Source of the DNA: a virus | Lineage: Duplodnaviria > Heunggongvirae > Uroviricota > Caudoviricetes | DNA: 44,629 nucleotides | IMG/VR virus record: IMGVR_UViG_2609460219_000007 | Reading direction: 5' to 3' (one strand) | Translations under genes and position numbers: made by a program | The notes under the pieces: generated by a model | Told to the model about the DNA's origin: nothing | The model's input: the letters and a program-made list of their open reading frames with translations, nothing else | Databases searched by the model: none | Shown: one piece after another, positions 28,657-28,885 of the stretch | Position numbering within the stretch: position 1 is the stretch's first letter | Layout of the letters: each line of letters opens with the position of its first letter

Positions 28657-28885
28657 GGGTCCTCCCGGTGTAGTGACCTGCCACGGGGCGGGAGCGTCGC
28701 GGAAAAAGGCTGGTTTTTGCATTTTCATGGCGGCGGCAGCATGTGTGATAATTTATTGATAATTAAAAATTATTTCTGTTTTCACCTGTACAATATTTTT
28801 TTCTCCCTGTCATTAGACCAGTTTGCAATTAATTGAAATATATAAATAAATTGGTTTTTCACCTGCCAGATGGAGTTGCCTGTGC
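28657..28885. repeat. cos-like repeat copy 2 (includes a vestigial terS 5' end)
   Basis: High similarity by eye to 20068-20290 over about 220 bp, including the terS RBS/start region (cacctgccagatggagttgc...), but no terS ORF follows. Confidence 0.6.

Follow-up and report, generated by a model that had tools for sequence, protein, structure and literature searches.

The described satellites that most resemble the element analysed here are the helper-embedded PICIs (HE-PICIs), whose listed integration sites include terL; the proposal for them is that helper late genes were captured and subsequently lost (Tommasini, Mageeney & Williams 2023, PMC10111431). One of them, 11capE, resides in prophage 50icd and has in common with its helper a 258-bp cos that is 90% identical between the two (PMC10111431). 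EcCICFT073 carries two cos sites, both of which were functional by experiment, and deletion of the second raised transfer (PMC6092414). P4 and cos-type SaPIs such as SaPIbov5 carry a copy of the helper cos and are packaged by the helper terminase, and SaPIbov5 additionally encodes the capsid homologue Ccm (PMC5052747). In the cos of phage lambda, the critical R3 element spans bp 50-65 (PMC9026076).

We analysed a stretch of 44,629 nucleotides from IMG/VR virus record IMGVR_UViG_2609460219_000007, which in its full length is called the window below. A preliminary description of this DNA had drawn attention to a second copy of cos, here termed cos2, that lies in a satellite and ends in the remains of a terS start. 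We addressed where the similarity of cos2 to phage cos ends, what flanks it, and how it compares with the cos sites of related satellites and their helpers.

Results

The satellite and its helper prophage

The satellite (21819-32556) is a 10.7-kb insert in the terL gene of its helper. Both junctions were mapped on the intact terL of cdtI, which revealed a 10-bp core, and the two halves of the helper gene match positions 334-644 and 644-985 of PHROG 15, abutting at 644. The same insertion site in terL was found in at least 11 other genomes. Because a TAG stop directly follows the core at attL, no helper TerL would be made until the satellite excises. The features that define the insertion, and the helper's own packaging start, are as follows.

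20068-20304, + strand: helper prophage cos (copy 1, cosB class A), with cosQ at 20068, the 12-nt cosN end GGGCGGGAGCGT at 20097-20108, cosB, and the terS SD and start
20293-20820, + strand: helper TerS (DUF1441, class A, 175 aa, MSNVSG...), matching PHROG 141 (1.9e-65) and Pfam DUF1441, its ATG at 20293 placed as in the RefSeq annotation of L001
21809-21818, + strand: attL core TTTCTGGATG, where the N-terminal half of helper terL (20829-21821) is interrupted
32557-32566, + strand: attR core TTCCTGGATG, where the C-terminal half of helper terL (32564-33676) resumes

The insert encodes a tyrosine-recombinase integrase (PHROG 1), a Bro-N protein, a primase (with an iteron origin), an SSB, a fusion of protease and capsid, and a small-terminase homologue of the DUF1441 family. 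Its size and its unidirectional zones (int/AlpA-like HTH, Bro, replication and late) are those of a Gram-negative PICI, and the satellite is a helper-embedded PICI in the terL of a Qin/cdtI-like lambdoid prophage. The putative satellite origin, downstream of the primase, is an iteron-rich region (27660-27900) of GGTGAACAG-type repeats, with two 10-bp copy-number differences from the 99%-identical complete genome L001. The protease-major capsid fusion (29246-31160) is a paralogue of the helper's own (35146-37365), at 70-76% DNA identity in four blocks, and may act like SaPIbov5 Ccm. Relative to L001, the window contains inserted N bases at 22493, 23137, 24651, 30229, 31184 and 32458. The Ns at 22493 and 30229 lie where split open reading frames overlap, so that the apparent frameshifts of the integrase (21983-23156) and protease-capsid (29246-31160) genes are artefacts of record quality and not pseudogenes. 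The helper prophage itself is related to Qin, the cryptic prophage of K-12, and is intact. It carries DicF RNA, the antitoxin RNA sok and two thermoregulator leaders of the cspA type (the 200-nt repeat D2), located at 4774-4825 (- strand), 10827-11001, 14554-14946 and 18010-18426.

cos2 extends from cosQ to the first codons of terS

A repeat search of the window paired 20068-20304 with 28657-28893 over 237 nt, without gaps and at 90% identity, and a MAFFT alignment returned the same block in the helper cos (cos1) and cos2, with unrelated flanks on both sides. The block 28657-28893 also matched the class-A phages HannyBb, Tritos and cdtI (91-92% identity, E 1e-77 to 6e-88), so that cos2 is no closer to the resident helper than to free type-A phages, and the right end of all three phage matches fell at window position 28893. 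These comparisons agree in supporting the earlier proposal that cos2 matches the phage copy through the RBS and start of terS. The parts of cos2 and of its surroundings are listed here from left to right.

28634-28654, + strand: intrinsic terminator that closes the satellite replication zone, GCCGGAgcaaTCCGGC followed by T6 (-15.4 kcal/mol, z = -3.8), its T-run ending 2 nt before cosQ
28657-28685, + strand: cosQ of cos2 (GGGTCCT-type, 28657-28663) and the spacer to the nick site, in register with lambda cosQ, which lies at -30 relative to the right end
28686-28697, + strand: cosN of cos2, with a 12-nt cohesive end GGGCGGGAGCGT predicted by sequence comparison, the same as the helper's
28698-28870, + strand: class-A cosB of cos2, 92% identical to helper cosB, containing two 39-nt repeats and, where lambda has R3, a block at 28728-28751
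28872-28893, + strand: terS stub, not a gene, with the SD GGAG (28872-28875), a former start codon that is now GTG (28882-28884) and remnants of codons 2-4
28894-28914, + strand: tail of 21 nt without detectable phage homology, nearly invariant among satellites
28915-28937, + strand: second terminator, GCCGGAttctcTCCGGC followed by T6, with stem and T-run as at 28634-28654, forming the right end of the 283-bp cos2 cassette
29040-29249, + strand: small gene (69 aa, PHROG 4934, E = 4.8e-30) of unknown function, translationally coupled to the protease-capsid fusion gene at 29246-31160

The window was found to hold three copies of cos (repeat family D4) and not two. In all three, cosQ (GGGTCC, 30 nt before the right end) and the left cohesive end are in register with those of lambda, the cosQ motif at 28657 corresponding to lambda 48473-48479. 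The 12-nt left end is GGGCGGGAGCGT in the window copies and GGGCGGCGACCT in lambda, and the deposited genome records of cdtI and Tritos begin with the first base of the predicted window-type end. The terS start lies about 197 bp from that end, as compared to 191 bp for lambda Nu1, and the class-specific block of cosB starts at bp 43 past the nick, where R3 lies in lambda; the R elements of class-A cosB, like its IHF site, are putative. The cos2 site thus resembles lambda cos in the location of cosQ, the length of the cohesive end and the distance to terS, and differs from it in that its cosB sequence is unrelated and that the TerS here is of the DUF1441 family while lambda's is Phage_Nu1. In cosB of cos2, the two direct repeats (28750-28788 and 28827-28865) are 77 nt apart and each ends in TTTTCACCTG. 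Judged by sequence, cos2 is a complete lambda-type cos, from cosQ through the terS start, and almost nothing else, and it is predicted to be cleaved at cosN and used in packaging. We found no sigma-70 promoter on the + strand around cos2.

The right limit of the homology could be placed within a few nucleotides. Identity between helper and satellite was 0.92 in cosB and 0.94 in the last repeat element, and fell to 0.83 over the stretch that begins with the SD and ends with the start codon, to 0.49 over codons 2-4, and to 0.38 over the 21 nt that follow. Past 28893, local alignment of the satellite with the next 60 nt of helper terS scored about as well as shuffled sequences did (566 and 653 of 2000 shuffles scored equally), and a GCGGGAT 7-mer common to helper terS and the satellite beyond this point was not significant. 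The homology therefore ends at 28888-28893, about 4 codons into terS. The preliminary description had set the limit at 28885; similarity indeed passes the terS start, but it reaches slightly farther than that, and the start codon is already mutated. It had also stated that the terS coding sequence decays within a few codons and had proposed aligning 20068-20400 against 28657-28990; in our alignment of the two copies the similarity ran beyond the terS start, and copy 2 has no terS open reading frame. There is no N or other ambiguous base in 28657-28945, and this stretch is 100% identical in the complete genome L001.

The terS stub is not a gene

In the stub, the SD GGAG is kept and the start codon has changed from ATG to GTG. 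Among the 12 satellites aligned, the former start codon is GTG in 10 and GTA in two (L010 and L015), and a 1-nt indel within the stub sets apart two groups of satellite variants. The conceptual peptides are unrelated to one another and to the helper's (VQNVFRW... in the window, VSKRVQM... in L003, MSNVSG... in the helper). A conserved micropeptide from the stub was ruled out by these differing frames and the GTA variants. The open frame at the stub is only 24-28 codons long, and does not encode a DUF1441 TerS with a wHTH N-domain and a TerL-binding C-domain; the intrinsic terminator begins 22 nt after the stub homology ends. No RNA family was found by Rfam in 28550-29100, in which the one sub-threshold match, to sroD (E = 0.57), lay over the upstream terminator.

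The statement that the satellite keeps no terS gene holds for cos2, after which no terS open reading frame was found in the window or in 13 relatives from complete genomes; it does not hold for the satellite as a whole, which has a terS of its own, terS', at 31419-31904. The further idea that a whole terS once stood at cos2 and was then lost did not gain support, as no longer class-A terS remnant was found in 45 rows sampled across 2,125 matching records. The second cosB repeat ends 6 nt before the SD, so that a segment carrying the whole of cosB can hardly avoid the terS start. We conclude that the stub, which is not a gene, is most likely a capture scar.

The cos2 cassette lies between two terminator-like hairpins

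Both hairpins that flank cos2 have the form GCCGGA-loop-TCCGGC-T6, and in the second hairpin the stem is conserved and the loop variable among satellites. In the relatives L005 and L016, a single hairpin with the upstream loop is followed by the sequence found downstream of the second hairpin, with exactly 283 bp missing; the cassette is also missing in L009, and these relatives appear otherwise intact. In EcCICFT073, the same single hairpin, GCCGGAGCAATCCGGCTTTTTT, stands at the boundary between replication and late zones and is not followed by a cos. Most simply, the ancestral state is one hairpin, to which a subfamily added the cos2 cassette, although this direction is inferred; cos2 looks acquired, as a cassette at a conserved backbone terminator that is absent in EcCICFT073, L005 and L016. 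Deletion between the hairpin repeats can remove the cassette again. The hairpins are predicted to terminate transcription, and they probably keep transcription out of cos2 and divide the replication zone from the late zone.

As had been noted earlier, a different small gene follows at 29040. Its match to PHROG 4934 and the overlap of its stop with the start of the protease-capsid gene (ATGA) make this + strand gene look like the real one, as opposed to an antisense open reading frame of 174 nt (28980-29153, - strand) that RefSeq annotates in most relatives. It had no match in Pfam or PDB, and PDB sequence searches with the small gene, orf95 and TerS' gave nothing meaningful. In the relative L008 (6008-12326), the same conserved intergenic region and small gene are followed by no capsid gene but by three large genes without characterised products, of 2.5 kb, 2.1 kb and, truncated where the locus ends, at least 1.3 kb; this trio may serve as cargo or in defence, under the control region of the satellite late zone.

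A second satellite cos carries a different cosB and its own terS

The third copy of cos in the window also belongs to the satellite, and lies at the other end of the capsid module.

31168-31191, + strand: terminator after the satellite capsid gene, abutting cos3 as 28634-28654 abuts cos2
31194-31418, + strand: cos3, with cosQ-cosN 95-96% identical to cos2 and a cosB of class B, divergent from bp 43 past the nick onward
31419-31904, + strand: satellite TerS' (DUF1441, class B, 161 aa), 68% identical to class-B helper TerS

When TerS' was compared with class-A helper TerS, the C-terminal part alone aligned (49%). By these assignments the satellite combines a predicted class-A cos without terS (cos2) and a predicted class-B cos with terS (cos3). 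Among related embedded satellites, the helper cosB and TerS were of class A in the window, L001, L003, L006 and L021, and of class B or B-like in L004, L005 and L022-L025. Variants of the spacer between cosQ and cosN were shared by cos2 and cos3 within one element, GTAGTGACC being found at both sites in the window (28657-28728 and 31194-31265) and in L001, and the same extra T at both sites in L006 (12964 and 15504), suggesting gene conversion between cos2 and cos3.

TerS' showed no similarity to the protein encoded at the Rpp position of EcCICFT073 (E = 2.5). The gene in this position in the window is a full DUF1441 TerS homologue, whereas Rpp is a short mimic of the TerS DNA-binding domain without the TerL-binding tail, and it does not indicate redirection of the Rpp type. 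In L011 (6010-6779) a Nu1-type terS stands in place of the DUF1441 terS', and in EcCICFT073 (L020) the Rpp-position gene does so; in both, an inverted cos lies downstream of the replacing gene, the cos sites of L020 being at 7529 (+) and 8339 (-). Tail-protein fragments together with a tail-assembly gene were seen between the capsid gene and cos3 in L005 (14253-14953), L013 (5832-6562) and L024 (13412-14112), and are further captured helper late genes.

Distribution and constraint among relatives

The stub junction was present in 154 of 5,426 complete E. coli genomes, where a genome was counted if at least 80% of a 101-nt probe was covered, and identity was always 90% or higher. The late zone itself is present in roughly 234 genomes. 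It occurs in satellites embedded in terL and in chromosomal ones, such as that of L002 between cspD and clpS. Within terL-embedded satellites, cos2 accompanied five of five class-A helpers and six of seven class-B-like helpers, and a tie between cos2 and the class of the resident helper was discarded for lack of association. A pattern scan outside E. coli, with one genome per species, yielded a single match, which was a helper-type copy in a mis-binned MAG.

Polymorphism in the cassette was low. In ten satellites, polymorphic sites numbered 27 in the 214 of cos2, two in the 44 of the stub plus tail and two in the 23 of the second hairpin, as compared to 25 of 61 four-fold degenerate sites in the SSB gene next to the cassette (Fisher p = 3e-6 for cos2 and 1e-5 for the stub plus tail). 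From the last repeat to the hairpin, a stretch of 44 nt, pi was 0.009-0.025, versus 0.049 in cosB. The stub is thus not decaying at present, and the cassette is either under purifying selection or recently spread. The satellites have fixed differences from helper cos that are specific to them, and in most satellite copies the 12-nt cosN end is the same as the helper's. In L025 (10430-10436), the cosQ of cos2 is GGGGCC and not GGGTCC, a change that may inactivate its termination function.

Discussion

We think it reasonably likely that cos2 is a working helper-mimic packaging site, for which the two functional cos sites of EcCICFT073 (PMC6092414) and the cos common to 11capE and its helper (PMC10111431) are precedents. 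The class-A helper terminase, TerS with TerL, would bind cosB of cos2 and nick cosN on satellite concatemers without any satellite factor, and cos3, with its class-B cosB and as the canonical PICI cos, would work in parallel, served by TerS'. The satellite would in this way be packageable by both helper classes in which it is found embedded. The cassette (28657-28937), which we infer to have been inserted and not to be ancestral, is trimmed to cos, with its left edge 2 nt before cosQ and its right edge about 4 codons into terS, followed by the terminator.

The preliminary description had derived cos2 from a helper-like packaging module, and the part that stands is that cos2 is a phage-derived type-A cos that carries the 5' end of terS and looks acquired; the resident helper as its source does not stand. 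A recent copy of cos and terS from that helper, followed by decay of terS and leaving a satellite without terS, would account for the similarity that extends through the terS start, and would suit elements that, as HE-PICIs, adjoin helper packaging genes and for which capture and then loss has been proposed (PMC10111431). We nevertheless regard such a copy as very unlikely. The identical junction in 154 genomes, at chromosomal sites (L002) and with class-B helpers, occurs whatever the cosB class of the helper, so that cos2 was not copied from the resident one. Identity of cos2 is 91-92% to unrelated free phages and 90% to this helper, the satellite-specific differences are fixed, the satellite has its own terS, and no terS remnant of greater length was seen in the 45 rows sampled. 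An artefact, in which cos was duplicated by mis-assembly of a low-quality record or by sequencing error, draws on the scattered and inserted N bases that make false frameshifts elsewhere in the window, but is refuted by the N-free cassette and the same architecture in many independent complete genomes.

A different question is whether the site works, and which part of it. The cassette is dispensable, as L005, L016 and L009 show, L025 has a variant cosQ, and cos3 with TerS' is already present, all of which would fit a dead fossil with no present role, left by an old late-gene capture that ran from cos through the capsid gene and retained simply because of its short length. Against this, cosQ, cosN and cosB are intact, polymorphism is about 3-fold below that of synonymous sites and the cassette is kept in 154 genomes, so we consider a fossil improbable. 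Conversely, the stub and terminator might themselves be functional, either as an extension of cosB for assembly of terminase and IHF or as a transcriptional insulator or attenuator that shields cos2 from transcription and gates the capsid module. Nowhere in the region is polymorphism lower than in the 44 nt from repeat to hairpin, the stem of the hairpin is kept while its loop varies, and both satellite cos copies abut an upstream terminator. Yet we found no Rfam family, no promoter-like site on the + strand and no conserved reading frame, with this small number of sites the contrast to cosB falls short of significance, and the cassette may be young; a function of this kind appears unlikely to us. 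Low polymorphism of the cassette could also come from recent recombinational spread and not from selection. From two direct cos sites at a distance of 2.5 kb, products without the capsid module could arise, and the higher transfer of EcCICFT073 after deletion of its second cos (PMC6092414) indicates that an additional cos need not be of benefit.

Beyond cos2 as a working helper-mimic site, it is possible, and we put it forward tentatively, that a PICI subfamily maintains two cosB specificity classes as a standing adaptation and that the conserved stub and terminator are part of a working cos cartridge, which would come and go in one piece. If true, one satellite would be packaged by, and embedded in, two classes of lambdoid helpers. 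That both cos classes are kept whatever the helper class suggests the use of either class, which is a testable prediction of host range.

The stub is a physical trace of the derivation of a satellite packaging site from a phage packaging module, and it marks the right limit of what was kept, which is cosQ through the last cosB repeat. In this sense cos2 supports the published view of PICI late zones as shaped by capture and then loss (PMC10111431), and offers a natural delimitation of a minimal class-A cos that is useful for the study of cosB of DUF1441-type terminases. Already published are HE-PICIs, the presence of a helper-like cos in one of them, PICIs with two cos sites, and the capture of late genes, and the current understanding of PICIs is unchanged by what is an ordinary scar in a described kind of satellite. 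The limit of a captured cos with its terS stub, the cassette with duplicated terminators and the two cosB classes in one satellite are not in the PICI literature cited here.

Comparison with known systems

Like the HE-PICIs of PMC10111431, the satellite is 10-11 kb long, has int/AlpA-like, Bro, primase/SSB and late zones, and carries its own capsid gene. The cos that 11capE has in common with its helper is a parallel to cos2, and a search for this parallel with lambda cos gave matches dominated by the nohA/nohD cryptic-prophage copies. Unlike the present satellite, 11capE sits in a capsid gene and is said to be without terS (PMC10111431); the window satellite sits in terL, and combines a full TerS homologue with a second cos whose cosB is of another class. 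In PMC10111431 there is no description of the limit of the shared cos, of a terS stub, or of a cassette with duplicated terminators at its ends. P4 and the SaPIs are unrelated elements of unrelated hosts, for which neither a terS stub nor a dual-class cos is reported in the cited work (PMC5052747).

EcCICFT073 has the same backbone as the window satellite, with the order DUF4222-primase-SSB, the terminator hairpin, a capsid module and a last gene that is 73% identical. In EcCICFT073, too, cos is preceded by a terminator, AT and GGGTCC, there are two cos sites per element, and cosQ and cosN are conserved with those of helpers. Its second cos is inverted and downstream of rpp, whereas cos2 is direct and upstream of the capsid module, and cos3 occupies the place of EcCICFT073 cos1 and its Rpp-position gene, which by its position and length is probably rppA. 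The EcCICFT073 cos sites lack a phage cosB, and their recognition needs Rpp bound to helper TerS (PMC6092414, PMC6739421, PMC9026076). In contrast, cos2 keeps the phage cosB, and would therefore need no adaptor.
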